Source: an uncultured Spirochaetales bacterium (lineage in GTDB: Bacteria; Myxococcota_A; UBA9160; UBA6930). From it: 64,000 nucleotides of DNA. A program made the position numbers and the translations under genes. Of this stretch, positions 6,615-32,117 are shown one piece after another (positions within the stretch are counted from its first letter, which is position 1; every line of letters starts with the position of its first letter). The stretch is taken from contig CAYWRY010000001.1 of NCBI GenBank assembly GCA_964460485.1, positions 21,761 to 85,760 of the forward strand. The letters are read 5' to 3'. Under the pieces are notes generated by a model. That model worked only from the letters and a program-made list of their open reading frames with translations. It had not been told where the DNA came from and ran no database searches.

Positions 6615-7076
6615 ATGGCGGAGAAAGAGAAGCGGGCGATCGCCCGCTGGAACCCGTTCGAGGATCTGGGCTGGTGGTTCCCGAGTCTCTCGCGCACGAG
6701 CGAGGGCGACCTGCTCGAAGACTTCTGGGGCCGTCGCGGCCCCGGGCAGTTTTCGCCGGCGACCGACATCACCGAGGACGACGGCCACTACGTCGTGAGC
6801 GCCGAGCTGCCGGGCATGAAACGCAGCGACATCAGCGTCGACGTCCACGACGGCGTGCTCACGATCCGCGGCGAGAAGAAGAGTGAACGCGAGGAGAAGA
6901 GCGAGAAGCGCCGCTACGTGGAGCGCAGCTTCGGCGCGTTCAGCCGCGCGTTCACCCTGCCGAGCGACGCCGACGAGAGCAAGGTCGAGGCGACCTTCAA
7001 GGATGGCGTCCTCACCGTCACGCTTGCGAAGTCCGAGGCCCGCAAACCTCGCGTCATCGACGTGAAGGCGTCGTGA
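6615..7076 (+). CDS. Hsp20/alpha-crystallin small heat-shock protein
   Basis: ORF 6540..7076. The ATG at 6615 sits 7 nt after AGGAGG. Alpha-crystallin core: DITEDDGHYVVSAELPGMKRSDISVDVHDGVLTIRGEKK...FSRAFTLPSDADESKVEATFKDGVLTVTL. Paralog at 42906..43361. Confidence 0.9.
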   Translation: MAEKEKRAIARWNPFEDLGWWFPSLSRTSEGDLLEDFWGRRGPGQFSPATDITEDDGHYVVSAELPGMKRSDISVDVHDGVLTIRGEKKSEREEKSEKRRYVERSFGAFSRAFTLPSDADESKVEATFKDGVLTVTLAKSEARKPRVIDVKAS

Positions 7077-8266
7077 TGCGATACGCAGCGGGAGTCGCGC
7101 TGGCGACTGGGCTCTCGTTGCTCTCGTGGGCCGCGCGCGCGGAAGCTCCGTCCGATCCGGATGCCGCCGCGCGCGCGGCCATGCAGCGCGTCTACGCGGC
7201 GATGACCGTGCTGTTGCCGGCCTCGGCGAAGGACGGCGGCTTCTCGGATCCCGCGCAGCGCGAGCAGCTGCGCGGCGCGTTCGAGACGCTGCGGGGGGCG
7301 GCCGTCGACCTGCGCGCCCACGGCACGAGCCGCGACGCGAGCTTCGGCCTGCACGCGAGCAACCTCGCCGACGACGCGCTGAACGCCAGCAGCGCCTTCG
7401 CCCTCGGCGACGAGGAGGAGGCGCGCTTCGCCTTCACGTTGCTGACCCAGCGCTGTACCGACTGCCACTCGCGGCTTCCCGACGTACAGGACTCGCCGCT
7501 CGCCGCGCGGCTCGTGCAGCTTCCGGAGGTGAAGGCGCTCGCTCCGCTCGAGCGCGCGCGCGTCGACGTCGCGCTGCGGCGCTTCGACGAGGCGCTCGCC
7601 ACCTGGGAGCAGGCATTTTCCGAGCCGGCGATCCCGCCCGCGGAGCATGAGCTGGCGGGCACGCTGGCCGACTATCTGACGATCGCGCTGCGCGTGAAGG
7701 CCGACGCGCAGCGCCCGCAGGCGGTGCTGCGCAAGTTGGCGAATCGTCCGGACGCGCCGGGCTATCTGCGCAACCGGTTGGTGGCGTGGGCGGTCTCGCT
7801 CGCCCGCGTCGGAGCGGAGCTCGCCCAGTCGACGCCTTCCATCCAGCACGCCCGCGAGTGGGCGATGATGGCGCGCAACCTGTCGGACCTGCCGACCGCC
7901 CGCGACGGGTTGGTCTACGACCTGGCGGCGTCGAGCCTCTTGCTGCGCTGGATCGACGCGCGCGAGAAGGGCAGTCGGGCGCCGCAAGACCTCGAGCTGG
8001 CGACCGCGTACTACGAGCTGGCGGTGATCGAAGACCGCACGGCGTTCTCGATCTGGGCGCCGCGCACGGACGTGTACATGGAGGCGGCGGTGCGCGCCGC
8101 GCCCTCGGGCCCGCTCGCGCGCCGTGCCTACGCGCGGGTCGAGGAGCAGCTCATGACCGAGCTGGGCGCGACCAGCCCCGACGGCTTGCCCGAGCCCGAA
8201 CGCGCGCGCCTCGCGGCGCTGCGCGCGCTGGTCGAGGGCGCCCACGCCGGCGGCAAGGCGAAGTAG
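7073..8266 (+). CDS. secreted helical protein with a single CxxCH motif (function unknown)
   Basis: Full ORF, 397 aa. ATGA overlap with the hsp20 stop. Signal peptide [25 protein letters not shown] and a CTDCH motif. Alignable along its whole length to 30882..32117 (CAGCH). Confidence 0.75.
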
Positions 8267-8310
8267 CCGCCGCACGAAGCTCGGAAGCGAGCACCGGAGG
8301 AGAGTTCGCC

Positions 8311-9933
8311 ATGTCGCACACGCAGATTCTGTTCCGCGACCAGGCCCGCGCGCGGATCCTCGCCGGCGCCGCGCTGCTGGCCGACGCCGTGCGGCCGACG
8401 CTCGGTCCGAAAAGCCGCTGCGTGCTGATCGACAAGAAGTGGGGCACGCCACTGGTCTGCGACGACGGCGTCACGATCGCGAAGGAGATCAACCTGAAAG
8501 ATCCCGAGGAGAACCTCGGCGTGCGCATGCTGCGCCAGGCTTCGGTGCGCACCGGCGACGCGGTCGGCGACGGCACGACCACCTCGACGCTGCTCGCCCA
8601 CGCGATCTTCGCGGAGGGGCTGCGCAACGTGGTCGCGGGGGCGAGCGCCATCGACCTGAAGCGCGGGCTCGAGCGCGGGCTCGCGGCGGCGGTGGAGGCG
8701 CTGCGGGGGCTCTCGAAGCCGGTGAGCAGCGCGAGGGAGAAGGCGCAGGTGGCGACCATCTCCGCCCACAACAATCCGGCGATCGGGAACCTCGTCGCGG
8801 AGGCGCTCGAGAAGGTGGGCGGCGAGGGCATCGTCACCGTCGAGGAGGCGAAGGGCACCGAGACGACGCTCGAGGTCGTCGAGGGCATGCAGTTCGATCG
8901 CGGCTTCCTGTCGCCCTACTTCGTCACGGATCCCCAGAAGCTCGAGGCGGTGCTGGTCGACCCGCTGATCCTGCTCCACGACAAGCGCATCGCGACCATG
9001 AAGGACCTGGTGCCGCTGCTCGAGCGCGTGGTGCGCAACGGCCGCTCGCTCTTGATCGTCGCCGAAGAGGTCGAAGGCGAGGCGCTCGCGACGCTGGTGG
9101 TGAACAAGCTGCGCGGCGCGCTGAGCTGCCTCGCCGTGAAGGCGCCCGGCTTCGGCGACCGCCGCAAGGCGATGCTCCAGGACATGGCGATCCTGACGGG
9201 CGGCAAGGTGATCTCCGACGAGGTCGGCCTCAAGCTCGAGAACGTGGATCTCAGCGACCTCGGCTCCGCCAAGAAGGTGGTGGCCAACCAAGAGGCCACC
9301 ACGCTGATCGACGGCGCGGGCGCGAAGGAGCTGATCGAGGCGCGCTGCACGGAGCTGCGCAAGCAGATCGACGAGTCGAAGTCGGACTACGACAAGGAGA
9401 AGCTGCAAGAGCGGCTCGCGAAGCTCGCGGGCGGCGTGGCGGTGATTCGCGTGGGCGCTCCGTCGGAATCCGAGATGAAGAACCGCAAGGACGCGTTCGA
9501 CGACGCGATCGCCTCCACGAAGGCCGCCATCGCCGAAGGCATCGTGCCGGGCGGCGGCCTGCCGCTGCTGCGCATCGCGGAGGCGGTGCTGCGCGAGGAG
9601 AAGAAGTGCGAGGGCGACGAGGCGACCGGACTGCGCATCCTGCGCAGCGCACTGGAAGCGCCCGCGCGCCAGATCGCGCTCAACTCCGGTGCGGACGCCG
9701 GCGTGGTCGTGGACCGTCTGCGCAGCGGCAGCGGCGCGTTCGGCTTCGACGCGCGCCACGGGGACTACGTCGATCTCGTGGAGGCGGGCATCATCGACCC
9801 GACCAAGGTCGTGCGCATCGCGCTGGAGAACGCGGTCTCGGTGGCGGGTACGCTGCTGCTGGCGGAAGCCACGCTCACCGAAATCGAGGACGACAAGAAG
9901 GAAGGGCAGCCCGAGCTGCCGGCGGGGATGTGA
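8311..9933 (+). CDS. groEL: chaperonin GroEL (divergent, no adjacent groES)
   Basis: C-terminal 540 aa of ORF 7786..9933. GGAGGAG lies upstream of the ATG at 8311. Contains [30 protein letters not shown] and [15 protein letters not shown]. The C-terminus ends [10 protein letters not shown] without a GGM repeat. Confidence 0.9.
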
Positions 9934-9937
9934 CGCC

Positions 9938-10471
9938 ATGGAGATTCACTGGCGCAACGCGAAAGAGCTCTCGGGCGACGTGCGCGCGAAGGCGGAGGAG
10001 CAGCTCGCGAAGCTCGCCGAGCATCATCGCGACATGATCGACCTGACCGTCGACGTGGAGCGCAAGAGCGCGCATCACAAGCTGGGCAAACGCCGCGTCG
10101 AGATCCGTTGCCAGGCGCGCGGGACGAACCTTGTCGCGAACGGCGAGGCCGACGAGCTCGGGCTCGCGCTGCGCGACGCTCTGCGCACCTTCCGGCGCGA
10201 AGTCGAGAAGCTGCGGGACCGGCGCCGCGACGCGCGCGCCGAGCGCCCGGCCGAGCCGCCGCTGCGCGGCGTGATCGATCGCGTGGAGCGCGCGGGCGGC
10301 TTCGGCTTCCTCATCACCGACGCCGGCGAGCGCGTCTACTTCCACCGCAACGCGGTGGGCGGCGGGCTCGACTTCGATCGCCTCGAGGGCGGCGAGACCG
10401 TGGCCTTGAACTACGAAGCCGGCGGCGAGGGCCTGCAAGCCACGTTCGTGCGCTCGCTCGAGCCGGGCTGA
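9938..10471 (+). CDS. HPF/RaiA-like ribosome-associated domain fused to a cold-shock (CSD) domain
   Basis: C-terminal 177 aa of ORF 9689..10471. The ATG is 5 nt after the groEL stop. N-terminal MEIHWRN..VRAKAEEQLAKLAEHHRDMIDLTVDVE...VEIRCQARGTNLVANGEADELGLALRDALRTFRREVEKLRD follows the HPF/YfiA pattern. C-terminal GVIDRVERAGGFGFLITDAGERVYFHRNAV...GETVALNYEAGGEGLQATFV follows the CspA pattern. Confidence 0.75.
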   Translation: MEIHWRNAKELSGDVRAKAEEQLAKLAEHHRDMIDLTVDVERKSAHHKLGKRRVEIRCQARGTNLVANGEADELGLALRDALRTFRREVEKLRDRRRDARAERPAEPPLRGVIDRVERAGGFGFLITDAGERVYFHRNAVGGGLDFDRLEGGETVALNYEAGGEGLQATFVRSLEPG

Positions 10472-10707
10472 GCGCGGCGCTCTGGAGTCCCGTGGGCTGC
10501 GCCACCCGGTCACGCGGCGACCGTCTGCTCCGGCACCAGCCGAATGCGGCGCTCGTCGACCATGCGCGCGAGCACGGCGGCGAAGCCGCGGAGCGCGGGC
10601 CCGTCACCGAGTGGGCGAGCGGTTCGGCCGCGTTCGCGCGGCACACCGTCGTCGCCTCGCGCGTGCCCGCGACGATCGAGGACGTGCGCGCGCGCGGAGG
10701 GCCTGGC

Positions 10708-11262
10708 GTGAGGGGCGGAGTCGTGACGGCTGCCCTGTGCGCAATGCTGGCCTGCGCGGCGCCGCTCGGTCCCGTGCGCGAGGCAGCGGCCCGCGAGCGC
10801 GGCGCCGCGGCGATAGCGCCGTTCAAGCAGCGCCTGCTCGCCGAGCTCACCGCGGCGCTCGCGAGCGGCGGCGCCGAGAACGCGCTCGACGTGTGCCGTC
10901 TGCGCGCGCCGGCGCTCGCGCGCGAGGTGAGCACTGCGGCGGCGCGCGTGGGGCGCACGAGCCACAAGCTGCGCAATCCCGACAACGCGCCGCCCGCGTG
11001 GGCGGCGCCGCTGCTCGCGAGTTACGTGGCGGGCGAGCGCACGAACGAGTCGAGCGTCGTTCCGCTGCGCCGCGGCGGCGCCGGCTACGTCGAGCCGATC
11101 TTCACGGGTCCGCTCTGCCTGACTTGTCACGGCGAGCAAATCGCGCCGTCGCTCAGGGCGAAGCTGAGCGCGCTCTATCCCGAGGATCGCGCCACCGGCT
11201 TCCGCGCGGGAGAGCTGCGCGGGCTCTTCTGGGTCGAGCTCGCCGCGGAGGACACGCCCTGA
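10708..11262 (+). CDS. DUF3365 (Tll0287-like) c-type-heme periplasmic domain protein
   Basis: ORF 10108..11262. GTG at 10708 sits 7 nt after GGAGG, but the start is uncertain. Signal-like VVTAALCAMLACAAP, a CLTCHG heme-c motif and GELRGLFWVEL. Confidence 0.65.
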   Translation: MRGGVVTAALCAMLACAAPLGPVREAAARERGAAAIAPFKQRLLAELTAALASGGAENALDVCRLRAPALAREVSTAAARVGRTSHKLRNPDNAPPAWAAPLLASYVAGERTNESSVVPLRRGGAGYVEPIFTGPLCLTCHGEQIAPSLRAKLSALYPEDRATGFRAGELRGLFWVELAAEDTP

Positions 11263-11313
11263 TTCTCGCTCGGCGTGTGCGGCCGGAGCAGCCGCGTGCC
11301 CGCCGCGAAGCTC

Positions 11314-11784
11314 TCACTCGCGCTTCGCCAGCCGCACGATCTTCGGGAGCGCGAGCCTCCTCCAGTCGGCGAAGCGCATGCGCACCGCTTCGTCGTGGGT
11401 GCCGCCGTTGAAGGTGATCTGCTCGTCTTGCTCGAGCGCCTCGCTCGCGTAGACGGGAAGGTCGTAGAGCACGCCGAAAGGCGGCGCGGCGCCCGGCTCG
11501 CAGTCGGGGCAGAGCGTCTTCAGGTCCGTCTCGGTCGCGACGCGGACCTGTTTCGCGCCGAGCGCCTTGCGCAGCTTCGAGGGCGCCAGGTGCTCGTTCG
11601 CCGGCATCACCGCCATCGCCGGCTTGCCGTCGATCCACACGAACACCGTCTTCGCGAACGCTTGCAGCGGCGTGAAGGTGTCGAGCGCCGTCTTCGCGGC
11701 GTGGAAGTCGCGGCGGTGATGGATCTGCGTGTAGTCGACACCCGCGGCGTCGAGCAGCTGCTGGAGTCGGCCGAGTCCGGACAT
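11314..11784 (-). CDS. YbaK/EbsC-like aminoacyl-tRNA deacylase domain protein
   Basis: C-terminal 156 aa of ORF 11314..11973. MSGLGRLQQLLDAAGVDYTQIHH...AKTVFVWIDGKPAMAVMPANEHLAPSKLRKALGA...FNGGTHDEAVRM, with GGAGG upstream. Confidence 0.65.
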   Translation of the reverse strand: MSGLGRLQQLLDAAGVDYTQIHHRRDFHAAKTALDTFTPLQAFAKTVFVWIDGKPAMAVMPANEHLAPSKLRKALGAKQVRVATETDLKTLCPDCEPGAAPPFGVLYDLPVYASEALEQDEQITFNGGTHDEAVRMRFADWRRLALPKIVRLAKRE

Positions 11785-11806
11785 GGCACCTCCCCGGGGT
11801 TTCTCC

Positions 11807-12919
11807 CTAATAGATCGACCAGCGACGCACACCCATCGCGCGCGCCACGCGCGCGAGCGCGAGCTCTTCGGCCGCGGCGTGCGGCGTCGCGCGGCTCTCG
11901 CGCGCGGCGACGAGCACGGCCTCCGTGTTCGCTCGGATGCGCTCCTCGATCGCCGCGAACGCCTGGCTCTCACTCGCCCCGTGATGCTCGGCGGAGGCGC
12001 AGATCACGCCGCCGGCGTTGGCGATGAAGTCGGGCAGCACGACCACGCCGCGCTGGGCGAGCGCGACCTCGGCGTCCGCCGTCACGGCGATGTTCGCGCC
12101 GGGCGCGACGACGCGCGCGCGCAGGCGGCCGGCGTCGGCGCCTCGAATCGCGTCGGGCCGCGCGGCCGGGATCCAGATCTCGCAGTCGAGGGCGAGCAGG
12201 GCCGCCGCGGAGACCGGCTTCGCGCCCGCGAACTCCGCCACCGCACGCCCGCTGCGCTTCCACGCGATCAGCGCCTCCACATCGAGGCCGCCGGCGTGCG
12301 CGATCGCGCCCTTCGAGTCGGCCGCGCCCACCAGCACCGCACCCGCGCGGGCGAGCTGCCGCGCCGCGTGAATGCCCACCGAGCCGAAGCCCTGCACGAC
12401 GAAGCGCGCGCCCGCGAGGGCAAAGCCGGCGTGCTGCGCCGCGATCTCCACCGCGTGGCGCAGGCCGAAACCGGTAGCCCCCAGCTCGTCGAGCGGGATG
12501 CCGCCCAGCTCGCGCGGCAGGCCGACCGCGCGGCCGATCTCGTCGCGCACCCAGGCCATGCAAGCTTCGTCGGTGCCCATGTCGGGGCCGAAGATGTAGT
12601 CGCGCTCGCCGCGCAGCGCGCAGGCGAAGGCGCGCACGAGCGCCTCCTTCTGGGCGCGCGGCATGTGCGGATCGCCGACCAGCACCGACTTGCCGCCGCC
12701 GTGGGGCAGGCCGGCAGCCGCGTTCTTCAGCGTCATCGCGCGCGCGAGGCGGAAGCATTCATCGAGGCTCGCGTCCGGCGCGATGCGCAGCCCGCCGATC
12801 GACGGTCCCGCCGCCACGTTGTCGACCACCAGGATCCCGCGCAGCCCGAGCTTCGGCTGCTGGACGTGGATCACCTTGGCAGGGCCCCACGCGTCGGCGA
12901 GCGCGAACGGGTCGCTCAC
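11807..12919 (-). CDS. Glu/Leu/Phe/Val dehydrogenase family protein
   Basis: C-terminal 370 aa of ORF 11807..13039. GTG at 12919 with GGAGG upstream. Contains the GLPHGGGKSVL catalytic-Lys motif and an NAD fold VVQGFGSVG. Confidence 0.85.
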   Translation of the reverse strand: MSDPFALADAWGPAKVIHVQQPKLGLRGILVVDNVAAGPSIGGLRIAPDASLDECFRLARAMTLKNAAAGLPHGGGKSVLVGDPHMPRAQKEALVRAFACALRGERDYIFGPDMGTDEACMAWVRDEIGRAVGLPRELGGIPLDELGATGFGLRHAVEIAAQHAGFALAGARFVVQGFGSVGIHAARQLARAGAVLVGAADSKGAIAHAGGLDVEALIAWKRSGRAVAEFAGAKPVSAAALLALDCEIWIPAARPDAIRGADAGRLRARVVAPGANIAVTADAEVALAQRGVVVLPDFIANAGGVICASAEHHGASESQAFAAIEERIRANTEAVLVAARESRATPHAAAEELALARVARAMGVRRWSIY

Positions 12920-12946
12920 TTCACGGCGCCTCCGCGCCCGCGATAG

Positions 12947-12962
12947 AGCAAGGCCCGTTCCA
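12947..12962 (-). promoter_or_regulatory. sigma-54 promoter candidate for the dehydrogenase-ybaK-like operon
   Basis: Minus strand reads TGGAACGGGCCTTGCT with exact spacing and a perfect -12 TTGCT. There are 28 nt to the GTG at 12919. Confidence 0.55.
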
Positions 12963-13105
12963 ACGCGCACGTCTCCTCGCGTCCGCGAGCCGCGCGCTTC
13001 TGCGGTCGATGGCGGGCAGTCTCCGCTGCGACGCCCCAAACTGAGTCACAGTGCCACGCTCGATCCGGGCCCCGGACGCCAAGCGGTTATCCGCCGCCGG
13101 CCGCG

Positions 13106-13121
13106 CGGCACGTCGCTTGCT
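13106..13121 (+). promoter_or_regulatory. sigma-54 promoter candidate for the APH/AAA kinase gene
   Basis: CGGCACGTCGCTTGCT, a near-consensus GGCACG-N4-TTGCT. There are 28 nt to the ATG at 13149, with GGGAGG in between. Confidence 0.7.
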
Positions 13122-13148
13122 GACCGGACGGAAGGGAGGCGCGGCGCG

Positions 13149-14837
13149 ATGTCCGAGGACGGCCTGACTCCCGCCCAGCTCGCCTCGCTCGCGACCGCCG
13201 CCGCGTACCCGGGCGACCCGAGCGCCGCGGGCGGCGTGCGCTGGATCCAGACGCATCTCTCCCACGTGTTCCTGACGAGCGATCGCGTCTACAAGCTGCG
13301 CAAGGCGACGCGCCTCTCGTTCGTGGACTTCGCTGCGCGCGCCGAGCGCAACGCCGACTGCCTGCGCGAGGTCGCACTGAACCGCCGACTGGCGCCGGAC
13401 GTGTACCTCGGCGTCGCGCCGGTGCGCGCGGCGGGGCAGCGGGTCGAGATCGGCCCGGTCGGCGAGGCCCTCGTGCCGGGCTGCGAGCACGTGGTCGTGA
13501 TGCGGCGGCTGCCGGAAGGCGCCGACGCGCTCTCGCGGCTCGAGCGCGGCGCGCTCGGCGCGCGAGATCTCGACCTCGTCGCCGCGCGCATCGCGGCCTT
13601 CCACGCCGCGCACGGTCTCGGTGCACCAGCGCCCTTCGCGGCGGCGGAGTGGGCGTCGCGCGTCGCGGCGCCGATGCGAGGGAACGTGGCGTCGCTGCGC
13701 GAGTCGGCGCGCGTGCGGGTCGCCGCGAGCGCGGAGGTGGAGGCCCTCGCCGCGGAGACCGAGCGCGCGATCGCCGCGCACGCCGGGGCGATCGAGCGCA
13801 GGCGCTGCGAGGGCCGCGCGGTCGAGGGCCACGGCGACCTCCACCTCCAGCACGTCTGGTTCGAGGCGTCGCCTGACAGCCCAGACGCGCCGCCACGCCT
13901 CTCGCTGATCGACTGCCTCGAGTTCAAGGAAGAATGGCGCCAGATCGACGCCGCGAGCGAGGTGGCGTTCCTGGCCATGGATCTCGCGTACCGCGGCGCT
14001 CGCCCGCTCGGCGAGCGCTTCCTGCGCAAGTACGCCGCGCTGCGCGACGACTTCGGCCTCTACGACGTCGTGGACTTCTTCGTCGCCTATCGCGCCGCCG
14101 TGCGCGCGAAGGTGGCCGCCTTGGCGGCCTGTGATCCCGCGATCGCGCCGGGGCAGCGCGAGCGCGCCGTGGAGAGCGCGGCGCGACACCTGGCGCTCGC
14201 GCGCGAAGCGCTGCGGCCGCCCGCGGCTGCGCCGCTGCTCGTCGTGTGCGGCAGCGTGGGCACGGGCAAGAGCACCCTCGCGGAGGAACTCGCCGACGCG
14301 ACCGGCGGCGCTGTCGTCTCGTCGGACCGCACGCGCAAGGCGCTCGCGGGCATCGCTCCCGAGAGCCGCGCGCAGGCGCGCGCGGGCGCTCCGCTCTACG
14401 CCGACGCCGTGACCGACCGCGTCTACGCCGCGCTGCTGGAGCGCGCCGCCCCCGTGCTCGGCTCGGGGCGCGCCGCCGTGCTCGACGCCACGTTCGCGCG
14501 CGCGAAGCACCGCCTGGCCGCGCGCGACTTCGCCGCGGCGCGCGGCGTTCGCGCGCTGCTGGTCGAGGCGACCTGCGACGAGGCCGTCGCGCGCGAGCGC
14601 GTCGCCCGCCGCGCCGCGCTCGGTGCCGATCCTTCCGATGCAGGACCCGAACGCGTCGCGCCGAGTCGCGCGGCCTTCGAGCCGATCCGCGAATGGCCCG
14701 CCGCAGACCGACTCTCGGTCCGGACGGATTCCGGCACGGCGGACGAGCGAGCTGCGGCCCTACGGATTTGGGTCGAGGCGCATTCGGCTGGGCGCCCGCC
14801 AGATCCTCCGGCCGGCGCGCGGGCTCCTTTCGCCTGA
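13149..14837 (+). CDS. bifunctional aminoglycoside-phosphotransferase-like / P-loop (AAA) ATP-binding protein
   Basis: C-terminal 562 aa of ORF 12663..14837. The APH-type kinase motif HGDLHLQHVWF and IDCLEF are followed by a P-loop, VCGSVGTGKSTLA. Confidence 0.8.
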   Translation: MSEDGLTPAQLASLATAAAYPGDPSAAGGVRWIQTHLSHVFLTSDRVYKLRKATRLSFVDFAARAERNADCLREVALNRRLAPDVYLGVAPVRAAGQRVEIGPVGEALVPGCEHVVVMRRLPEGADALSRLERGALGARDLDLVAARIAAFHAAHGLGAPAPFAAAEWASRVAAPMRGNVASLRESARVRVAASAEVEALAAETERAIAAHAGAIERRRCEGRAVEGHGDLHLQHVWFEASPDSPDAPPRLSLIDCLEFKEEWRQIDAASEVAFLAMDLAYRGARPLGERFLRKYAALRDDFGLYDVVDFFVAYRAAVRAKVAALAACDPAIAPGQRERAVESAARHLALAREALRPPAAAPLLVVCGSVGTGKSTLAEELADATGGAVVSSDRTRKALAGIAPESRAQARAGAPLYADAVTDRVYAALLERAAPVLGSGRAAVLDATFARAKHRLAARDFAAARGVRALLVEATCDEAVARERVARRAALGADPSDAGPERVAPSRAAFEPIREWPAADRLSVRTDSGTADERAAALRIWVEAHSAGRPPDPPAGARAPFA

Positions 14838-14839
14838 AC

Positions 14840-14855
14840 GGGCACGCGGGATGCA
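14840..14855 (+). promoter_or_regulatory. sigma-54 promoter candidate for cfa-oxidoreductase
   Basis: GGGCACGCGGGATGCA (GGCACG-N4-ATGCA), starting 3 nt after the upstream stop. There are 50 nt to the ATG at 14905, with GGAGGGGAGG in between. Confidence 0.5.
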
Positions 14856-14904
14856 GATAGGCTGTGCGGGCAGGGGGTGGCGAGGACGCAGGAGGGGAGG
14901 TCCG

Positions 14905-24613: not shown

Positions 24614-24645
24614 CTCGAATCCTCCACTGACATCGAACCGCTTCC

Positions 24646-24661
24646 AGCAAGGTTCGTTCCG
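24646..24661 (-). promoter_or_regulatory. sigma-54 promoter candidate for the hypothetical-ldt-DUF882 operon
   Basis: Minus strand reads CGGAACGAACCTTGCT with exact spacing and a perfect -12 TTGCT. There are 33 nt to the start at 24613. Confidence 0.5.
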
Positions 24662-24723
24662 TCTCCGCTGGCTCCCCGGATGGCGCCACCGGGCGGGCCG
24701 CGCGCCCCGAGCCGAGGTCGAGT

Positions 24724-24739
24724 CGGCATGGCCGATGCA
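24724..24739 (+). promoter_or_regulatory. sigma-54 promoter candidate for the PRT-malic enzyme operon
   Basis: CGGCATGGCCGATGCA. There are 26 nt to the ATG at 24765, with AGGAGG at 24753-24758. Divergent from 24646..24661. Confidence 0.55.
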
Positions 24740-24764
24740 CAATCGCCCGCGCAGGAGGGCGCGC

Positions 24765-25409
24765 ATGTTCGAGAACCGCAGCGACGCGGGCCGCCAGCTC
24801 GCGAGGCGCCTCGCTCGCTTCCGGGGCCACGACGTCGTCGTGCTCGCCCTCCCGCGTGGCGGCGTGCCGGTCGCGTTCGAGGTTGCGCAGGCGCTCGGCG
24901 CTCCCCTCGATTTGCTGCTCGTACGAAAGCTCGGCGCGCCGGGGCACCCGGAGCTCGCCGCCGGTGCGATCGTGGACGGCGAGACGCTCGAGATCGTCGC
25001 CAACGAGGACGTGCTGCGGCTGACGGGTGCGGACCACGCGTTTCTCGAGCGCGTCGCGCAGCGCGAGCTCGCCGAGCTGGAGCGCCGCCGCGCGCTGTAC
25101 TTGGGCGCGCGGCCGCCGCTCGCGGTGAAGGGCCGGACGGCGATCGTCGTCGACGACGGCGTGGCGACCGGTGCGACGGTGCGCGCCGCGCTGCGGGGCC
25201 TGCGCCGGCGCGCGCCCGCGCGCGTCGTGCTCGCCGTGCCGGTGGCTGCGCCGGAGGCGCTCGCGTCGCTCGCCGCCGAAGCGGACGAGACCGAGTGCCT
25301 CGAGGCGCCCGCGAGCTTCGGCGCCGTGGGCTCCTTCTACCGCGACTTCCGCCAGACCGGCGACGCGGAGGTGATCGCGCTGCTGGAGCGCGCAGCGAAG
25401 CCGGCATGA
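24765..25409 (+). CDS. phosphoribosyltransferase-family protein
   Basis: C-terminal 214 aa of ORF 24477..25409. Contains MFENRSDAGRQLARRL...VVVLALPRGGVPVA and the PRPP-binding loop AIVVDDGVATGAT. Confidence 0.8.
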   Translation: MFENRSDAGRQLARRLARFRGHDVVVLALPRGGVPVAFEVAQALGAPLDLLLVRKLGAPGHPELAAGAIVDGETLEIVANEDVLRLTGADHAFLERVAQRELAELERRRALYLGARPPLAVKGRTAIVVDDGVATGATVRAALRGLRRRAPARVVLAVPVAAPEALASLAAEADETECLEAPASFGAVGSFYRDFRQTGDAEVIALLERAAKPA

Positions 25410-26761
25410 GCGAACGCGAACCGGCGCCGCAGCCCGAGCTCGAGACGCCCACGCAGGCCGCACTGCGCCTCGGTCCGCTCTACCGTGGCAAGCTGCAGAC
25501 GGTGCCGAAGGTGCCGGTGCGCGGGCTCGGCGACTTCGCGCTCTGGTACACGCCGGGCGTCGCCGCGCAGTCGCGCGCGGTCGCGGCGCAGCCGGCGCTC
25601 GTCTTCGAGCACACCAACAAGTCGAACCTCGTGGCGGTCGTCTCCGACGGGACGCGCGTGCTCGGCCTGGGCGACATCGGCCCGCTCGCGGCGCTGCCCG
25701 TGATGGAGGGCAAGGCGCTCCTGTTTCGCGTGCTGGGCGGCGTCGACGCGGTCGCGCTGTGCCTCGACACCAAGGACCCCGACGAGCTGGTGCGCACGGT
25801 CGAGATTCTCGCGCCCTCCTTCGGCGGCGTGAACCTCGAGGACATCGCGCAGCCGAAGTGCTTCGACGTGCTGGCGCGGCTGCGCGAGCGGCTCGACGTC
25901 CCCGTCTGGCACGACGACCAGCAGGGCACGGCGACCGTCGTGCTCGCGGCCGTGCGCGCGGCGCTGCGGGTCGTCGGCAAGCGCCTCGCCGACGCGAAGC
26001 TCGCGTTCGTCGGCTGCGGCGCCGCGAACACGGCCAGCGTACGGCTGCTGCGCGTGGCGGGCGCCGACCCGCGCGCGATGGTGATCTGCGACCGCAGCGG
26101 CGTGCTGCACCCGCTGCGCTCCGATCTCGACGCGCTGCGCGCGCGGGCTCCGCACAAGTGGGAGCTCGCGCACGTCACCAACGCCGAGCGCGTCACCGGC
26201 GGTGTGCGCGAAGCGCTGCGGGGCGCGGACGTGTGCATCGCGTTCAGCGAAGCGCGGCCCGGCGTGATCCGCCCCGAGTGGGTCGGCGAGATGGCGCGCG
26301 ATGCCGTGGTGTTCGCGTGCGCCAACCCGGAGCCGGAGATCTGGCCCGCCGACGCGCTCGCGGCCGGAGCGCGCATCGTGGCGACGGGCCGCAGCGACTT
26401 CGCCAACCAGCTCAACAACTCGCTGGTCTTCCCCGGCATGTTCCGCGGCGCGCTCGACGTGCAAGCGCGTGCGATCAGCGAGGGCATGGCGCTCGCCGCG
26501 GCCGAGGCGCTGGAGCGGCTCGCGGAGGGACGCGGCCTGCGCGAGGGCCGCATCCTGCCGCTGGTCACCGACGAGGAGACCGCGGTGCGCGTGGCCGTCG
26601 CGGCCGGGGGCGCGGCTTGCGCCGAAGGGCTCGCGCTCGCGCCGAAGGACGAAGCGGAGCGGGGCCGCGAGGCGCGCCGCGCGATCGGCGACGCGCGCGC
26701 GCAGCTGGACGCGCTCGTCGCCGCGGGCCTCGTGCGGCTGCCGGAGCACGCCCCGCGTTAG
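25406..26761 (+). CDS. NAD(P)-dependent malic enzyme (short form)
   Basis: C-terminal 451 aa of ORF 23939..26761. ATGA overlap with the upstream stop. Contains LYTPGVA, VVSDGTRVLGLGDIG, PVMEGKALLF, NLEDI, DDQQGTA and NNSLVFPG. Confidence 0.9.
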   Translation: MSEREPAPQPELETPTQAALRLGPLYRGKLQTVPKVPVRGLGDFALWYTPGVAAQSRAVAAQPALVFEHTNKSNLVAVVSDGTRVLGLGDIGPLAALPVMEGKALLFRVLGGVDAVALCLDTKDPDELVRTVEILAPSFGGVNLEDIAQPKCFDVLARLRERLDVPVWHDDQQGTATVVLAAVRAALRVVGKRLADAKLAFVGCGAANTASVRLLRVAGADPRAMVICDRSGVLHPLRSDLDALRARAPHKWELAHVTNAERVTGGVREALRGADVCIAFSEARPGVIRPEWVGEMARDAVVFACANPEPEIWPADALAAGARIVATGRSDFANQLNNSLVFPGMFRGALDVQARAISEGMALAAAEALERLAEGRGLREGRILPLVTDEETAVRVAVAAGGAACAEGLALAPKDEAERGREARRAIGDARAQLDALVAAGLVRLPEHAPR

Positions 26762-29445
26762 GCCGCTGCGCCCGCGCGCCGCGCGCCAAGCGCTCGCAGG
26801 AGCGTGGTCGCTGCCAGCGAGCCGAGGCTCGCGGCGAGCACGAGCAAGAGAGCGCGGGCGGGAAGGGGCGCGAGCGCGAGCACGCCCGCGAACGCGGGCA
26901 GGGTGCCCGCGGCCGCAATCAGGCCCGCGCACAGCGCGACGGCGCCCCACGCCCACGGGTTGCGCGTGACCTCGCTGCGCCACACGCGCGAGCCCGCTCC
27001 GCGCATGTCGAACACGTGCCAGAGCTGTGCGAGCGCGAGGGTGTAGAACGAGACGGTGACGACTTCGGCCTCGCCCAGGCCGAGCCCGCGCGAGGCCAGC
27101 GCCATGGCCGCGAACACGCTCGCGCTGATCGCGAGGCTCCCCCGCAGCGCCGCGCGCCAGTGCGCGGCCGCGAGCAGCGCTTCGCGCGGGTCGCGGGGCG
27201 GGCGATGCATCACGCCCTCCGGGCCCTCGGAAGCGCCGAGCGCGAGCGCCGGGAAGACGTCCGTCACGAAGTTTAGGAAGAGGATCTGGAGCGGCAGCAG
27301 CGGCAGCGGGGCGCGCAGCGCGGCGGCGAGGCCGACCACGAGGATCTCGCTGAGGTTGCACGCCACCAGGTAGATCACGAACGCGCGGATGTTCCCGAAA
27401 ATCACCCGGCCCTGGTGGACGGCGGCGACGATCGTCGCGAAGGCGTCGTCGCGCAGGACGAGGTCCGCCGCCTCGCGCGCGACCGCCGTGCCGCGCTCGC
27501 CCATCGCGATGCCGATGTCCGCCTTGCGCAGGGCCGGCGCGTCGTTCACGCCGTCGCCCGTCATCGCTACCACCGCGCCGTGCGCCTGGTGCAGGGCGAT
27601 CAACGCGAGCTTCTGCTCCGGGCTCGCGCGCGCCACGATCGGCGCCGCGAGCGCCGCCTCGCCGCTCGCGGCGAGCGCGTCCCCCCGCAGCACGGGCGCG
27701 TTCGCGTCGTGCACGAGCCCCACGGCGAGCGCGACGGTGCGCGCGGTCGCGGGCTGGTCGCCGGTCGCCATCACCACGCGGATGCCGGCGCCGCGGCAGG
27801 CCGCGAGCGCGCCTCGCACGTTCGGGCGCGGAGGGTCGAGCAGACCGACGAGGCCGAGCAGCGTCAGCCCCGCGTAGGGATCCTCGTCGGCGCGTGCCGC
27901 GCGACGCTCCGCGACTGCGAGCACGCGCAGCCCGCGGAGCGCCATCTCCTCGTTTCGCGCCAGCCAGCGAGCGCGCACCTCGCTGTCGAGGGCGCGCGCG
28001 GCCGCGCCGTCGGCGACGGCGCTGCACGCGGCGAGCACGGGCTCGGGCGCTCCCTTCACGGCGACGCGGAACGCCTCGGCTTCGCGGTGGACGGACGCCA
28101 TCATCTTCTGCGCCGGGTCGAAGGCGACGCTGCGCACCTCCGGCAGGCGCGCCACGAGCGCTTCGCGCTCGATGCCCGCCTCGCGCGCGGCGGCCAGGAG
28201 CGCGAGCTCGAGCGGATCTCCGACCGCCTCTGCGCCGTCGGCGAGCGCGGCGTCGTTGCACAGCGCGCCCGCTTCGAGCGCGCGCCTCAGCTCGAGCTCG
28301 GCGCCGGCGTCCAGCGGGCTGCCGTCGCGCGAGAAGGCGCGCGCGCCGGTGGCGACGCGCATTGCGCCGCCCGGCAGCGCGAGCTCGACCACCGTCAGGC
28401 GGTTCTCGGTGAGCGTGCCCGTCTTGTCGACGATCACGACGCCCGTGGCGCCGAGCGTCTCCACCGCCGCGAGCCGATTCACGAGGGCGTTGCGCTTTGC
28501 CATGCGGCGCACGCCGCGCGCGAGGGCGAGCGTCGCGATCACCGGAAGTCCCTCGGGCACGGCGGCGACGGCGAGCGCGAGGGCGGTCTCCACCATCACC
28601 GCCGGGTCGCGCTGCGCGGCGACGCCCGCGCCGATCACGAGCGCGGCGACGGCCACCGCGAGGACGAGCAGGCGGCGGCCCAGCCGGTCGAGGCGCCGCT
28701 CGAGCGGCGTCGGCGCGTCGGGCACTGCCTCGACGAGCCGGGCGATGCGTCCTAGCTCGGTGCTCGCGCCGGTGGCCACCACCACCGCTTCGCCCGAGCC
28801 GCGCGTCAGGGCCGAACCCTTGAAGAGCATGCCCGGCCGCTCGGCGAGCGGCGCAGCGGCGTCGACCGGCTCCGCGCGCTTGGCGACCGGCAGCGATTCG
28901 CCGGTGAGCAGCGACTCGTCCGCCTGGAGCTTCGAGCCCGACAGGATGCGCAGGTCCGCCGCGATCAAGTCGCCGGCTTCCAGCAGCACGATGTCTCCGG
29001 GCACGATGCGGTCCGCGTCGACGCGCTGGCTCCGGCCGTCGCGGCGCACGCTCGCCCGCTCGACGCCGAGCCTGCGCAGCGCCTCCACGGCGCGCACCGA
29101 CCGCAGCTCCGTCGCGAAGCCGATCGCGGCGTTGATCGCCAGCACGACGCCGATCGCCGCCGCCTCGAGGCGGTGCCCGGACGCGAGCGAGAGCCCGACG
29201 CCCACCGCGAGCATCGCCACCACGACGCTCTCGAACTGCGCAGCGAGCACGGCGAGCGCGCTGCGCGTGCGCGCCCGGCGCAGCTGATTCGGCCCGAAGC
29301 GCGAAAGGCGCGCCTGCGCTTCGGCGCTCGACAGGCCGCTGCGCGCGTCGACGGCCAAGGCCGCGAGCAGGGCGTGCGGTTCCGCCGCATGGGGAGCAGC
29401 GGGCGGAGCTTGCGGTGCCGCTGCGGGCGTCGGCGCGCGCTGCAT
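26758..29445 (-). CDS. cation-transporting P-type ATPase (P2-like)
   Basis: Full ORF, 895 aa. Contains LTGESLPV, DKTGTLT, MTGDGVNDAPAL and multiple TM segments. Its stop overlaps the convergent malic enzyme stop. Confidence 0.9.
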   Translation of the reverse strand: MQRAPTPAAAPQAPPAAPHAAEPHALLAALAVDARSGLSSAEAQARLSRFGPNQLRRARTRSALAVLAAQFESVVVAMLAVGVGLSLASGHRLEAAAIGVVLAINAAIGFATELRSVRAVEALRRLGVERASVRRDGRSQRVDADRIVPGDIVLLEAGDLIAADLRILSGSKLQADESLLTGESLPVAKRAEPVDAAAPLAERPGMLFKGSALTRGSGEAVVVATGASTELGRIARLVEAVPDAPTPLERRLDRLGRRLLVLAVAVAALVIGAGVAAQRDPAVMVETALALAVAAVPEGLPVIATLALARGVRRMAKRNALVNRLAAVETLGATGVVIVDKTGTLTENRLTVVELALPGGAMRVATGARAFSRDGSPLDAGAELELRRALEAGALCNDAALADGAEAVGDPLELALLAAAREAGIEREALVARLPEVRSVAFDPAQKMMASVHREAEAFRVAVKGAPEPVLAACSAVADGAAARALDSEVRARWLARNEEMALRGLRVLAVAERRAARADEDPYAGLTLLGLVGLLDPPRPNVRGALAACRGAGIRVVMATGDQPATARTVALAVGLVHDANAPVLRGDALAASGEAALAAPIVARASPEQKLALIALHQAHGAVVAMTGDGVNDAPALRKADIGIAMGERGTAVAREAADLVLRDDAFATIVAAVHQGRVIFGNIRAFVIYLVACNLSEILVVGLAAALRAPLPLLPLQILFLNFVTDVFPALALGASEGPEGVMHRPPRDPREALLAAAHWRAALRGSLAISASVFAAMALASRGLGLGEAEVVTVSFYTLALAQLWHVFDMRGAGSRVWRSEVTRNPWAWGAVALCAGLIAAAGTLPAFAGVLALAPLPARALLLVLAASLGSLAATTLLRALGARRAGAAA

Positions 29446-29495
29446 GCGGCGAGATTCGCGCGGCGCGTCCCCGGAGACGCCGCGCGCCGAGTCGC

Positions 29496-29975
29496 TCAGA
29501 GCGCGGCTTTCGCGAGCAGCGGCAGCAAGTCGAAGGTCGAGATCACGCCCACCAGCGCGCCGTGGTCAGTCACCCAGATGCGATGGATGCGGTCGCGATG
29601 CATGCGCGCCGCCACCTCGCCGATCGGCATGCTTGCGCTGACAGTCGCCGCGCCGGGCGTCATCACCTCCTCGGCGGTCACCTGGCGCAGCCGATCCTGG
29701 AAGTCCGCCGGCGCGCCGCGGCTCCAGTCCGGGCCGGAGAACTCCACCAGCTCGCGCAGGTACTCGCTGCCGAAGGCTCCCGACTCGGCCTGCTCGATCG
29801 CCGCGTTCACCAGGTCGGTCGAGGTGATCACACCGAGCACGCGGCCTTGGTCGTCGATCACCGGCGCGCCGTGGATCTCCTCGTCGCCGAACAGCCGGTG
29901 CACCTCGGCGAGCGGCGTCTCGGGCGACACCGAGATCACGGGGCTCTGCATTACGTCGCGCGCGCACACCGCCAT
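29496..29975 (-). CDS. stand-alone CBS-pair protein
   Basis: C-terminal 159 aa of ORF 29496..30461. MAVCARDVMQSPVISV...HGAPVIDDQGRVLGVITSTDL...HRIWVTDHGALVGVISTFDL, with GGGAGG upstream. Confidence 0.8.
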   Translation of the reverse strand: MAVCARDVMQSPVISVSPETPLAEVHRLFGDEEIHGAPVIDDQGRVLGVITSTDLVNAAIEQAESGAFGSEYLRELVEFSGPDWSRGAPADFQDRLRQVTAEEVMTPGAATVSASMPIGEVAARMHRDRIHRIWVTDHGALVGVISTFDLLPLLAKAAL

Positions 29976-29995
29976 CGCTCCCCTCCCGGCCGGGC

Positions 29996-30421
29996 TCAGC
30001 CGGCCTCCTTCGCCATCAGGGCTTCCTCGCGTCGCTCGTGCAGCACGAGGCGCGGCAGCCAGGCTCCGAGCAGGGTATCGCCGGCCGCGAGGTCGCGTGC
30101 GCGCAGGGCGGCGGCGACTTCGACCACCGCCCCGCGCAGAGCCTCGTGGTCGCGCACGAACTCCGCCAGCTCGTCGGCGGTCGCGGCGTCGCGACCGTGG
30201 AGCGCCGGGAAGTAGACCTGCTCCTCGAGCGTGAAGTGCGCCTCGAGCGCATCGGCGAAGCGCGCGAAGGATTGCTCCGCGCCCGCGGCGTCGCCCCGCG
30301 CCAGCGCGTTCTCGAAGACCTCGTGGAACTCGTCGAGCTGGTGGTGCTGCGAGGCGATGCGAAGCGCCTCGCGGCGCAGCCGGAGCCCGAGGCCGGAGTC
30401 GTTCGAGGTCGGGTCCGTCAC
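29996..30421 (-). CDS. hemerythrin-like (HHE cation-binding) domain protein
   Basis: Full ORF, 141 aa, GTG start. His/Glu-rich four-helix pattern: QHHQLDEFHEVFE...LEAHFTLEEQVYFPAL...FVRDHEAL...HERREE. Confidence 0.7.
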   Translation of the reverse strand: MTDPTSNDSGLGLRLRREALRIASQHHQLDEFHEVFENALARGDAAGAEQSFARFADALEAHFTLEEQVYFPALHGRDAATADELAEFVRDHEALRGAVVEVAAALRARDLAAGDTLLGAWLPRLVLHERREEALMAKEAG

Positions 30422-30456
30422 TGCCAGTCCGCCTGGGCGTTCGAGAATGAGTTCGA

Positions 30457-30472
30457 GGCAATCGTCGTGCCG
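30457..30472 (-). promoter_or_regulatory. sigma-54 promoter candidate for the hemerythrin-CBS-ATPase operon
   Basis: Minus strand reads CGGCACGACGATTGCC (GGCACG-N4-TTGC, near consensus). There are 36 nt to the GTG at 30421. Confidence 0.7.
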
Positions 30473-30587
30473 CGTGCGGCGCCGCGGGCTGACCGCGCGG
30501 GCGTGGCGTGCGGGACGGTTCGCCCGCTCGTCGGGGCGCGCCGCATCAGGCCGGGCGCTCCCACCGGGCGACGATCCCCGCCCGCGG

Positions 30588-30603
30588 CGGCACGAACGCT
30601 GCT
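30588..30603 (+). promoter_or_regulatory. sigma-54 promoter candidate for the DUF4404 gene
   Basis: CGGCACGAACGCTGCT. Only 13 nt lie between the GC and the ATG at 30616, so the transcript is predicted leaderless. Divergent from 30457..30472. Confidence 0.6.
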
Positions 30604-30615
30604 ATCTCGACCCGC

Positions 30616-30867
30616 ATGCCCACCCGCGACGTTCACGACGCCGTCGAGAAGCTTCACACCGCGCTCGCGGACGCCCCGACGCTCACGCCCGAGCTGCGTA
30701 GCGAGCTCGAGAGCGTGCTGCGCGACGTCGAGCGCGCGCTCGGAGGGCGCGAGCGGCCGCTGGCAACGCGCGCGACCGAGCTGACCGCGCGCTTCGAGGC
30801 GAGCCATCCCCGCCTGGCCGAATCCCTCGCCGCGCTCGCCCGTGCGCTCGCCGGCGTGGGGATCTGA
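30616..30867 (+). CDS. DUF4404-like small protein
   Basis: C-terminal 83 aa of ORF 30508..30867. MPTRDVHDAVEKLHTALADAPTLTPELRSELESVLRDVERAL...SHPRLAESLAALARALAGVGI fits the DUF4404 pattern from memory. Confidence 0.65.
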   Translation: MPTRDVHDAVEKLHTALADAPTLTPELRSELESVLRDVERALGGRERPLATRATELTARFEASHPRLAESLAALARALAGVGI

Positions 30868-30881
30868 CGCGCCACCACGCT

Positions 30882-32117
30882 TCACGGCTGCGCCTGGCGC
30901 AGCCCGGCGAGCGCGCGCAGCTCGGCGAGCCAATCGGTCACGTCGCGCGGGACGTCGAGCCCGGCCGAGCCCATCCAGCCGAGCACCGTCTGCTCCTCGA
31001 GCACGCCGTAGGCGTCGCGCGCGATGTCGCTGTTCGGCGCCGCGCGGATCGCGCTCTCGAGATAGGCCTCCGCCTGCGGCAGACCGCGGGACGGGTCGTT
31101 GCGGAGCTCGGCGAGGCCGAGCAGGTAGCTCGCCTCCGCGCGCTCGTCGGGGTTCGCGAGGCCGCGCGCGAGCGCGCGGTGCAAGAGCGCCGAGGCGACC
31201 AGGTCGTGCACGAGCGCGCTCCGATCCGCGGGAAAGCGCCGGCGCGCCTCCGCCTTGGCCAGCACCTCGCGCGCCTCGACCAGCGTCGAGGCCTGCTCGT
31301 AGGGAGCGAGTTGAGCCAGCGCCTCGCGCCAGCTCGCGAAGAGCTGGCCGAGATAGGGCGGGGCGTCGCCGCGCGCGGCGAGCGCCGCCAGCATGCGTCC
31401 TGCGCGCGCATAGTCGCTGCGCACGCGCAGGGCGACCACCAGGTAGTCCTCGAGCGCGCCCTCGAAGTCGAGCGCCGAGAGCGAGGTCGAGCGCGCGGCG
31501 AAAAGCTTCTCGTAGGTTTCGAGCGCTGCGTCGAACTGGCGCGTTGCGATCAGCAGCCGCGCGCGCGCGGTGGGCGGCGCGCTCTGCATGCGCGCGGTGA
31601 GCGGGACGCCCACCGCGTGCTCGCGGGGATCGGGCAGGCGCACGTGACAGCCGGCGCAGTCGTCCACCACCTGGTTCAGCAGGAAACGCGCCTCGTCGGA
31701 GCTGCCCGCCTGAAAGCGCTTCGCGATCTCGGTCGCGTCCTCGGAGAGCCGGCGGGCGAAGAATCGGAAGCCGGGCGTGTCGTCGCCCCCGTGGAGCTCG
31801 AGCGCCGAGGCGTTGCGGGAGAGCTCGCGCAGCGCGCCGCGCAGCTCCTCGCGCGCGGCGGGCGAGGCGAACGTCTCCTGATCCTGTGCGTACGGCAGTG
31901 CGATCTCGAGCGCCGAGACGATGCCCACCATGCGCGCGGGGGTGTTCGGCAGCTCCTCGGCCGCCGGCTGCTGAGGCGCACAAGCGGTCGAGGTGGCGAA
32001 CAGGACGACGAAAGAGAATGGGACGAAACGCCCCGCTCCGCGTCCGATCGCCTCGATGCGCGCCCCGCCATCGCAGCTCGCCACGTGCGCCGCCCCCGCC
32101 GTTTCCGAGTCCTTCAC
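30882..32117 (-). CDS. secreted/lipoprotein-like helical protein with a single CxxCH motif (paralog of 7073..8266)
   Basis: C-terminal ~411 aa of the 1448-aa track ORF 30882..35228. GTG at 32117 sits 9 nt after GGAGG; an alternative GTG lies at 32084. Hydrophobic FVPFSFVVLFATSTAC, then DDCAGCHVRLP. Collinear similarity to 7073..8266 runs to the C-terminus (...LAELRALAG vs ...[10 protein letters not shown]). Confidence 0.7.
   Translation of the reverse strand: MKDSETAGAAHVASCDGGARIEAIGRGAGRFVPFSFVVLFATSTACAPQQPAAEELPNTPARMVGIVSALEIALPYAQDQETFASPAAREELRGALRELSRNASALELHGGDDTPGFRFFARRLSEDATEIAKRFQAGSSDEARFLLNQVVDDCAGCHVRLPDPREHAVGVPLTARMQSAPPTARARLLIATRQFDAALETYEKLFAARSTSLSALDFEGALEDYLVVALRVRSDYARAGRMLAALAARGDAPPYLGQLFASWREALAQLAPYEQASTLVEAREVLAKAEARRRFPADRSALVHDLVASALLHRALARGLANPDERAEASYLLGLAELRNDPSRGLPQAEAYLESAIRAAPNSDIARDAYGVLEEQTVLGWMGSAGLDVPRDVTDWLAELRALAGLRQAQP

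Follow-up and report, generated by a model that had tools for sequence, protein, structure and literature searches.

Two paralogs with export signals that combine a predicted class II cytochrome c bundle with a TPR-like solenoid in a candidate low-oxygen stress island of an uncultured bacterium

The window analysed here is a stretch of 64,000 nucleotides (nt) from an uncultured Spirochaetales bacterium placed by GTDB in the Myxococcota_A (contig CAYWRY010000001.1, positions 21,761 to 85,760), with a G+C content of 73.5%. It has two paralogous genes, called gene A and gene B. The reading that we favour, at a little better than an even chance, is that they encode exported monoheme c-type cytochromes of a two-domain family that serve periplasmic electron transfer under low oxygen.

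7073..8266, plus strand: gene A, 397 amino acids (aa), predicted exported class II cytochrome c domain followed by a tetratricopeptide (TPR)-like solenoid
30882..32117, minus strand: gene B, 411 aa, predicted lipoprotein paralog of gene A

Open reading frames are present at both positions. A pairwise BLASTP comparison gives a collinear alignment with 37% identity over 364 aligned residues and an E-value of 3e-52, which agrees with a preliminary description of the two as collinear homologs of about 400 aa. That description had the coordinates of the pair right but left out that gene B is on the minus strand.

Each protein has a single CxxCH motif followed by RLPD, as had also been claimed. The motif and RLPD together span aa 128-137 in gene A, and the corresponding segment of gene B is CAGCH-VRLPD (aa 154-163).

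7454..7468, plus strand: CTDCH, candidate heme-c attachment motif of gene A (C128, C131, H132), at the C-terminal end of helix 4
31644..31658, minus strand: CAGCH, candidate heme-c attachment motif of gene B (aa 154-158)

C128, C131 and H132 do not vary in any of the 313 full-length members aligned with MAFFT. Among 345 full-length sequences, one CxxCH motif is found in 342, two are found in 3, and none lacks it. Loss of the motif in homologs, which had been named as grounds for rejecting a heme site, was not seen in any of the 345.

The N-terminal ~105 residues very likely form a class II cytochrome c four-helix bundle, as judged from structural modelling.

7157..7480, plus strand: four-helix-bundle cytochrome domain of gene A (aa 29-136), predicted from AlphaFold2, Foldseek, profile and hhalign comparisons

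The full-length AlphaFold2 model of gene A was built on a 46-sequence alignment and has a pLDDT of 90.4 and a pTM of 0.86. It consists of a signal helix, a four-helix bundle and a 13-helix all-alpha solenoid. The bundle helices are at 29-52, 60-84, 89-110 and 114-132, and helix 4 ends with the CxxCH motif. A separate model of the N-terminal domain has a pLDDT of 92.6. In a Foldseek search of this domain against the PDB, nearly all of the top 50 matches are cytochrome c', NaxL or b562/cb562, with a probability of 1.00 and TM-scores of 0.63-0.80, at E-values of just 0.02-0.25. The best structural match is NaxL/Kusta0087 (6r6m_A; TM 0.78/0.80, root-mean-square deviation 2.6 A, 108 columns), and cytochrome c' of Alcaligenes xylosoxidans (1e85) aligns over ~120 columns with a TMq of 0.74. 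A sequence profile of the domain matches cb562 (E 0.003), NaxL (E 0.007) and cytochrome c' (E 0.09) in the PDB, and the CxxCH lines up with that of NaxL as well as that of cb562. Local hhalign against cb562 gives a probability of 81% and places CxxCH on CxxCH over helices 3-4 only; a global hhalign alignment to b562 failed. The class II fold together with the CxxCH at the end of helix 4 puts the motif at the canonical heme-c site of class II cytochromes. The AlphaFold and Foldseek checks suggested in the preliminary description return a confident bundle with class II cytochromes as its matches.

Curated models stay below threshold. The most recurrent weak Pfam match is the cytochrome c' family PF01322, which is found in 13 of the 46 members, always sub-threshold. 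Gene A scores 15.6 bits (E 0.033) and gene B 13.1 bits (E 0.2), where the gathering threshold is 26.5 bits, and NCBIfam gives zero matches for either protein. The earlier remark that no named family was recognised is correct in that no Pfam or NCBIfam model covers them, but incomplete in that the N-terminal fold is that of class II cytochromes c, with scores under the family thresholds.

A conserved methionine in helix 1 is the candidate distal ligand of the heme.

7181..7183, plus strand: Met37 codon of gene A, candidate distal heme ligand
31929..31931, minus strand: Met63 codon of gene B, the equivalent of Met37
7319..7321, plus strand: His83 codon of gene A at the end of helix 2, candidate alternative ligand or propionate partner

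Met is present at this position in 308 of 313 aligned members. Met63 of gene B is 95 residues ahead of His158, and the Met-to-His spacing is exactly 95 in ~308 of the 345 full-length members. The ligands of E. coli b562 are Met7 and His102, which have the same spacing of 95. The equation of Met37 with Met7 is based on this spacing, since the local hhalign alignment covered helices 3-4 only. The conservation of the Met and the spacing would fit Met ligation as in the low-spin c556/b562 subgroup, with His83 (His in 305/313) as a candidate alternative ligand.

Both proteins are predicted to be exported.

7073..7141, plus strand: putative Sec signal peptide of gene A (~aa 1-23), with the cleavage site between LLSWAARA and EA, judged from sequence
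31980..31982, minus strand: Cys46 codon of the putative gene B lipobox (FVVLFATSTA-C46), which fits a PROSITE-type lipobox pattern

On inspection, signals equivalent to that of gene A are present in the orthologs P0002-P0012. The lipobox Cys of gene B is found at position 13-47 in 27 of 29 B orthologs with at least 57% identity and a complete N-terminus. Across the family, 65 of the 345 full-length members have a lipobox, and the remaining ones that were inspected have Sec-type signals. The claimed export signals, with a lipoprotein-like one in B, are thus kept in relatives. We predict a soluble periplasmic protein for gene A and a lipid-anchored one for gene B. The GTG start of gene B at 32117 is preceded by GGAGGTGG, and the N-terminal length that it implies agrees with the orthologs. 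Members of the B clade (P0073-P0098) have a charged N-terminal extension of unusual length (25-30 aa) ahead of the lipobox segment, often with RR[FLV]A. Gene B of the window has GRF in place of RR[FLV]A (32030-32117, minus strand). For a c-type cytochrome, a Tat-like export route would be unusual.

The second domain is a long helical region, as the preliminary description had proposed.

7496..8254, plus strand: TPR-like all-alpha solenoid of gene A (aa 142-394), 13 helices in the AlphaFold2 model

The ~260-residue solenoid matches generic TPR superhelices in Foldseek at E 0.14 or worse and with low TM-scores. Single-repeat TPR matches in Pfam are sub-threshold (E 0.018-0.2) and occur in at most 7 of the 46 members, and a profile search gave this region zero sequence relatives in the PDB at E-values up to 10. 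"TPR-like" is therefore used here for the modelled shape and does not claim TPR membership. In the 313-member alignment the residues of this domain that are more than 95% conserved include R169, F171, E179, Y201, R214, W239, P344 and E357. R207 and R225 are conserved too.

The likely partner of the family is a small class I cytochrome c. Three members (P0168, P0173 and P0224), which are the ones with two motifs, have an extra N-terminal class I cytochrome c domain. In the related locus L003 the family gene and a class I cytochrome c gene overlap at the stop codon of the former, and class I cytochrome c genes are near family genes in L009, L010 and L013. This partner is proposed because of the fusions, the translational coupling in L003 and the proximity in the other three loci. 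The conserved Met and the class I cytochrome c fusions favour electron transfer over gas binding. Taken by itself, the electron-transfer role is close to an even call and perhaps slightly short of it.

Several known cytochrome systems are close to this family. Cytochrome c' (class IIa, PF01322; A. xylosoxidans 1e85) is a periplasmic protein with the same kind of four-helix bundle, again with a single CxxCH where helix 4 ends, and the weak Pfam and PDB sequence matches are over helices 3-4. It consists of the bundle by itself (~130 aa), and its heme is five-coordinate and takes up NO and CO, whereas the gene A/B family has an extra 260-aa solenoid and a helix-1 Met and is under the Pfam cut-off. 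Cytochrome c556, E. coli b562 and cb562 share the common fold, the Met-His spacing of 95 is that of b562, and cb562 is the best PDB sequence match. However, the heme of b562 is non-covalent, both c556 and b562 are single-domain proteins, and Met ligation is a predicted feature of the gene A/B family. NaxL (Kusta0087; 6r6m), from the heterodimeric NaxLS cytochrome c complex of anammox bacteria, is the best fold match, but it is a 110-aa heterodimer subunit with no TPR-like domain and belongs to another organism and pathway. The distal ligand of NaxL is a Cys and not a helix-1 Met, and the titles of its PDB entries name Cys-to-Gly and Cys-to-Met mutants. CcmI/CycH and NrfG are exported TPR-type scaffolds that act on c-type cytochromes; they bind apocytochromes and carry no heme. 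Neither gave a sequence or fold match in the Foldseek and PDB profile searches.

Both genes are associated with sigma-54-type promoter elements.

6563..6578, plus strand: CGGCATGCGCGTTGCA, sigma-54-type -24/-12 element upstream of hsp20, candidate promoter of hsp20-geneA-groEL
6615..7076, plus strand: hsp20 (alpha-crystallin family; Pfam HSP20 E 7e-27), first gene of the operon
8311..9933, plus strand: groEL paralog (Pfam Cpn60_TCP1 E 9e-67), 44 nt 3' of gene A, start codon and Shine-Dalgarno sequence read
32149..32164, minus strand: CGGCATGTTGCCTGCA, sigma-54-type element 33 nt 5' of the gene B GTG

The operon has the order hsp20-A-groEL that had been reported. An AGGAGG is located 7 nt ahead of the ATG of hsp20 at 6615, and the start of gene A overlaps the stop codon of hsp20 (GTGATG at 7073-7078). 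Gene B is convergent with a DUF4404 gene (30616..30867, plus strand) and is therefore monocistronic, also as described. The claim that each gene sits behind a sigma-54 match holds for gene B, which has its own element, but not for gene A, which has none of its own in the window and uses that of hsp20.

The elements are conserved in related genomes. The sequence GCGGCAyGyGCGTTGCA is conserved upstream of hsp20 in L001 and perfectly so upstream of the A orthologs in L001 and L004-L007. The A orthologs of related genomes carry their own copy of the element; hsp20 is mostly absent there, and a GroEL or S30AE/CSD protein is next. Elements of the gene B type are 24-30 nt 5' of the B orthologs in L009 and L010 and 33-67 nt 5' of the family genes in L014-L018. 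Overall, sigma-54-type elements are kept in L001, L004-L010 and L014-L018. A sigma-54-like element is within ~100 nt 5' of 14 of 18 family genes, where chance would give ~7% per gene; the binomial P of ~1e-13 includes close orthologs, which are not independent. In the window, 21 sigma-54-like sites score at least 9/11 compared to 9 +/- 2 in shuffles. These sites are often directly 5' of stress genes, namely those for CBS-DksA, Usp, Hsp20, AAA_33-domain, AMP-binding (acyl-CoA-synthetase-like), hemerythrin and DUF4404 proteins and the regulator gene.

The window also has a possible low-oxygen regulatory system.

37292..38695, plus strand: protoglobin-HisKA-HATPase sensor kinase (Pfam Protoglobin E 4e-35), candidate sensor of the regulon
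38829..40238, plus strand: NtrC-type sigma-54 activator (Response_reg - Sigma54_activat - HTH_8; Pfam Sigma54_activat E 6e-72)

This kinase-regulator pair adjoins family genes in two related loci, L003 and L018; in L009 the kinase does so. Genes for Usp, CBS, hemerythrin and P-type ATPase proteins also recur as neighbours of the family. The recurrence beside family genes elsewhere supports the regulon that the preliminary description had suggested. In L018, ccoGHIS-like genes are 2.5 kb from the family gene. Since the genes have sigma-54 promoters and the island has a protoglobin kinase and an NtrC-type activator, the proteins are probably produced at low oxygen.

The system in M. xanthus that is most similar is NmpRSTU, a protoglobin/NtrC system. 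In its published description, this system governs a sigma-54 "oxygen utilization" regulon made up of CBS, USP, P-type ATPase/cbb3 and hemerythrin genes. The protoglobin kinase NmpU stands at the head of this regulon, which responds to hypoxia, and hypoxia was shown to induce the reporter gene mxan_4236 (PMC11841059). The window has in common with that description a protoglobin sensor kinase, an NtrC-like activator, and sigma-54 promoters before CBS, USP, P-type ATPase and hemerythrin genes; it differs in having a simple kinase-regulator pair in place of the four-component relay of M. xanthus, and the 23-gene NmpR regulon as described there holds no member of the gene A/B family (PMC11841059). 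By this analogy the region looks like a low-oxygen stress island that resembles the NmpR hypoxia regulon.

In the mechanism that we infer, heme would be covalently bound in the periplasm to both Cys residues of the CxxCH at the end of helix 4, and the His of the motif (H132) would be the proximal ligand. The helix-1 Met (M37 in A, M63 in B) would probably be the distal ligand, which would give a low-spin His/Met electron-transfer heme as in c556 or b562. The family-specific solenoid of ~260 residues would dock the cytochrome to its partner, likely the small class I cytochrome c. Transcription would start from the sigma-54 promoters, and the proteins would probably be made when the protoglobin system signals limiting oxygen. 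The low-oxygen response would thereby gain a periplasmic electron-transfer step.

Several observations weigh against this. The sequence similarity to class II cytochromes is under every curated threshold, and the top structural matches are cytochromes c', which are five-coordinate gas binders and not electron carriers. His83 is conserved nearly as well as Met37 and is a possible other ligand. There is no class I cytochrome c gene in the window, and in one large clade of the family the link is to MacB-type ABC exporters and not to cytochromes. On the regulatory side, the NmpR box GCGCA-N5-TGCGC shows no enrichment across the window (42 one-mismatch matches compared to 38 +/- 6 in shuffles), and none is in a tandem arrangement upstream of the relevant window promoters. 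A search for a gapped palindrome common to 13 sigma-54 promoters of the window gave no candidate that rose over the GC-rich background, so no shared upstream activator site is seen among them. The link to the local regulator is drawn from proximity, because the NmpR box is not enriched and no activator site is shared.

Among the alternatives, the one that survives best, although it is rather unlikely, is that the proteins are cytochrome c'-like gas binders or sensors. The heme would be five-coordinate or would have an easily displaced Met, and it would bind NO, CO or O2 in the periplasm. The proteins may then buffer or detoxify the gas, or may relay a conformational change through the TPR-like domain to a partner. 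The best Foldseek matches include NO- or CO-bound cytochrome c' and the NO-binding NaxLS subunit NaxL (PMC11897245), and the sole recurrent Pfam cytochrome match is the cytochrome c' family. The island also encodes the protoglobin kinase, a hemerythrin and a Tll0287-like heme protein, and the NO-response membrane protein NnrS is encoded near a relative in L012. However, a Met kept almost without exception where b562 has its ligand speaks for a six-coordinate heme, the repeated cases of class I cytochrome c fused to the family protein or coupled to it in an operon indicate electron transfer, and classical cytochromes c' stand alone at ~130 aa.

It is also conceivable, but improbable, that the proteins act as a periplasmic heme switch. 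Redox changes or O2/NO at a labile-Met heme would reshape the solenoid and gate envelope partners such as class I cytochromes and MacB-type exporters. If true, this would couple redox or oxygen status straight to an envelope process with no kinase.

A role as a periplasmic accessory or adaptor of a MacB-type ABC exporter and its membrane fusion protein (MFP) is slightly more doubtful still. Here the transporter or its cargo would be held by the solenoid, with the heme as a redox switch or a structural cofactor. Genes for an ABC ATPase, a MacB/FtsX permease and an MFP are downstream of the family gene on the same strand in L014 (6001-11457) and L016 (6001-11488), with a gap of 23-25 nt. In L015 (4445-9862) and L017 (4291-9842) the operon is adjacent and convergent, so that all four sampled members of this clade (L014-L017) are linked to it. 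MFP/FtsX genes are also ~5 kb from the B orthologs in L009 (13777-15221) and L010 (12890-13576). However, no such transporter is near A or B in the window, and none is near the A orthologs or near the family genes of L003, L013 or L018. The association is confined to one clade and could be inherited gene order. The MacB-linked clade has the N-terminus TRARMxELVEALRVALPLSL, and its MFP is YknX-type.

It is very improbable that the CxxCH is not a heme site and that the proteins are TPR lipoproteins or periplasmic scaffolds with the Cys residues as a disulfide or metal site: public pipelines mostly label the relatives "tetratricopeptide repeat protein" or "hypothetical protein" and no curated cytochrome model reaches threshold, but the Cys, Cys and His are invariant, the motif falls precisely where class II cytochromes have theirs, in a bundle whose matches are cytochrome c', NaxL and cb562, the Met is kept at the b562 spacing, and two relatives are labelled "cytochrome c556" by JGI.

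The island (1..41126) has further genes of interest. It includes two tandem-Usp genes, hsp20, the groEL paralog (no groES was seen beside it), an S30AE-CSD fusion, three CBS-domain proteins, a P-type cation ATPase, a hemerythrin, phosphoribosyltransferases and the heme sensor kinase. This gene set parallels the DosR dormancy regulon of M. tuberculosis, and likewise the NmpR regulon of M. xanthus (PMC11841059). The DUF3365 protein (10708..11262), earlier described as a heme-c protein, is Tll0287-like (PF11845, E 2e-12), which is consistent with that description. The coding open reading frames of the window that contain a CxxCH are four, namely gene A, gene B, the Tll0287-like gene and a gene for a 957-aa protein (51046-53919, minus strand) with a beta-propeller (Lactonase/YNCE-like) match and a CASCH at ~52536. 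An NMD3-like zinc-ribbon protein is encoded beside the protoglobin kinase or stress island in three genomes (window 36787-37290, minus strand; L009 859-1359; L013 14862-15149). In L009 it is followed by a class I cytochrome c gene, and the window has no such gene.

Next to gene B, two sigma-54-like elements are back to back and 10 nt apart, one towards gene B (32149-32164, minus strand) and one (32174-32189, plus strand) towards a small predicted membrane protein (~32206..32494, plus strand). Another sigma-54-like element at 32518 precedes a gene for a 99-aa charged, helical-looking protein. This is followed by PRPP-synthetase-like (32865..33776) and thymidine/AMP-phosphorylase-like (33777..35267) genes, and the trio is kept in L009. 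A possible GCCGCA-N13-14-TGCGGC block is ~70 nt 5' of the A orthologs, although GCCGC is very common at this G+C content. The palindrome GGGGCA-N3-TGCCCC, which came from 8-mer enrichment, is perfect only in L014 (5895-5909) and L015 (4339-4353), where it is 39-40 nt ahead of the family gene's sigma-54 -24 element. Sites of this palindrome in the window are 3526-3540, 38745-38759 and 22616-22630. Copies with two mismatches occur at the same distance of 39-40 nt ahead of the window Usp (3581) and regulator (38799) promoters. The palindrome is not enriched in the window (7 compared to 5 +/- 2.4 in shuffles).

The family is large. In word-indexed searches gene A has 71 related clusters at 90% identity and gene B has 100, and almost all of these are metagenomic. 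The few named relatives are proteins from metagenome-assembled genomes (MAGs) of Myxococcota or carry JGI labels such as "TPR repeat protein", "mono/diheme cytochrome c family protein" and, for two relatives, "cytochrome c556". A profile search of 1.84 billion representatives gave 2014 matches with an E-value of at most 1e-3 (50% identity), of which 983 have an E-value of at most 1e-30. The top 150 profile matches are full-length throughout (~340-510 aa). Close orthologs of A number five in a narrow alignment and genome scan, and come from MAGs labelled Myxococcota, Deltaproteobacteria and, in one case, uncultured Spirochaetales. One family member is rich in K, N and I, which suggests a low-GC source. 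Paralog pairs recur on the contigs of L001/L009, of L004 and of P0032/P0150, and in L013. In L013, a distant genome, the paralogs (4400-5488 and 7001-8149) are 1.5 kb apart and flank genes for a single-domain response regulator and a class I cytochrome c. In L012 (8164-13386) the relative is beside genes for a GH15 trehalase-like protein, trehalose-phosphate synthase/phosphatase and NnrS, further functions tied to stress or NO.

Class II cytochromes c are single-domain textbook proteins, and a literature search turned up no report of one that is fused to a TPR domain. The family is an uncharacterised and widespread domain architecture of a familiar fold, for which no described counterpart was found. 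It joins a predicted class II heme domain to a conserved 260-residue solenoid in ~2000 clusters at 50% identity, which come only from metagenomes and MAGs and have no Pfam or NCBIfam model. In several lineages it has sigma-54-type promoters and adjoins a protoglobin oxygen-sensor system, which makes it a specific candidate for a periplasmic component of how uncultured Myxococcota respond to low oxygen.

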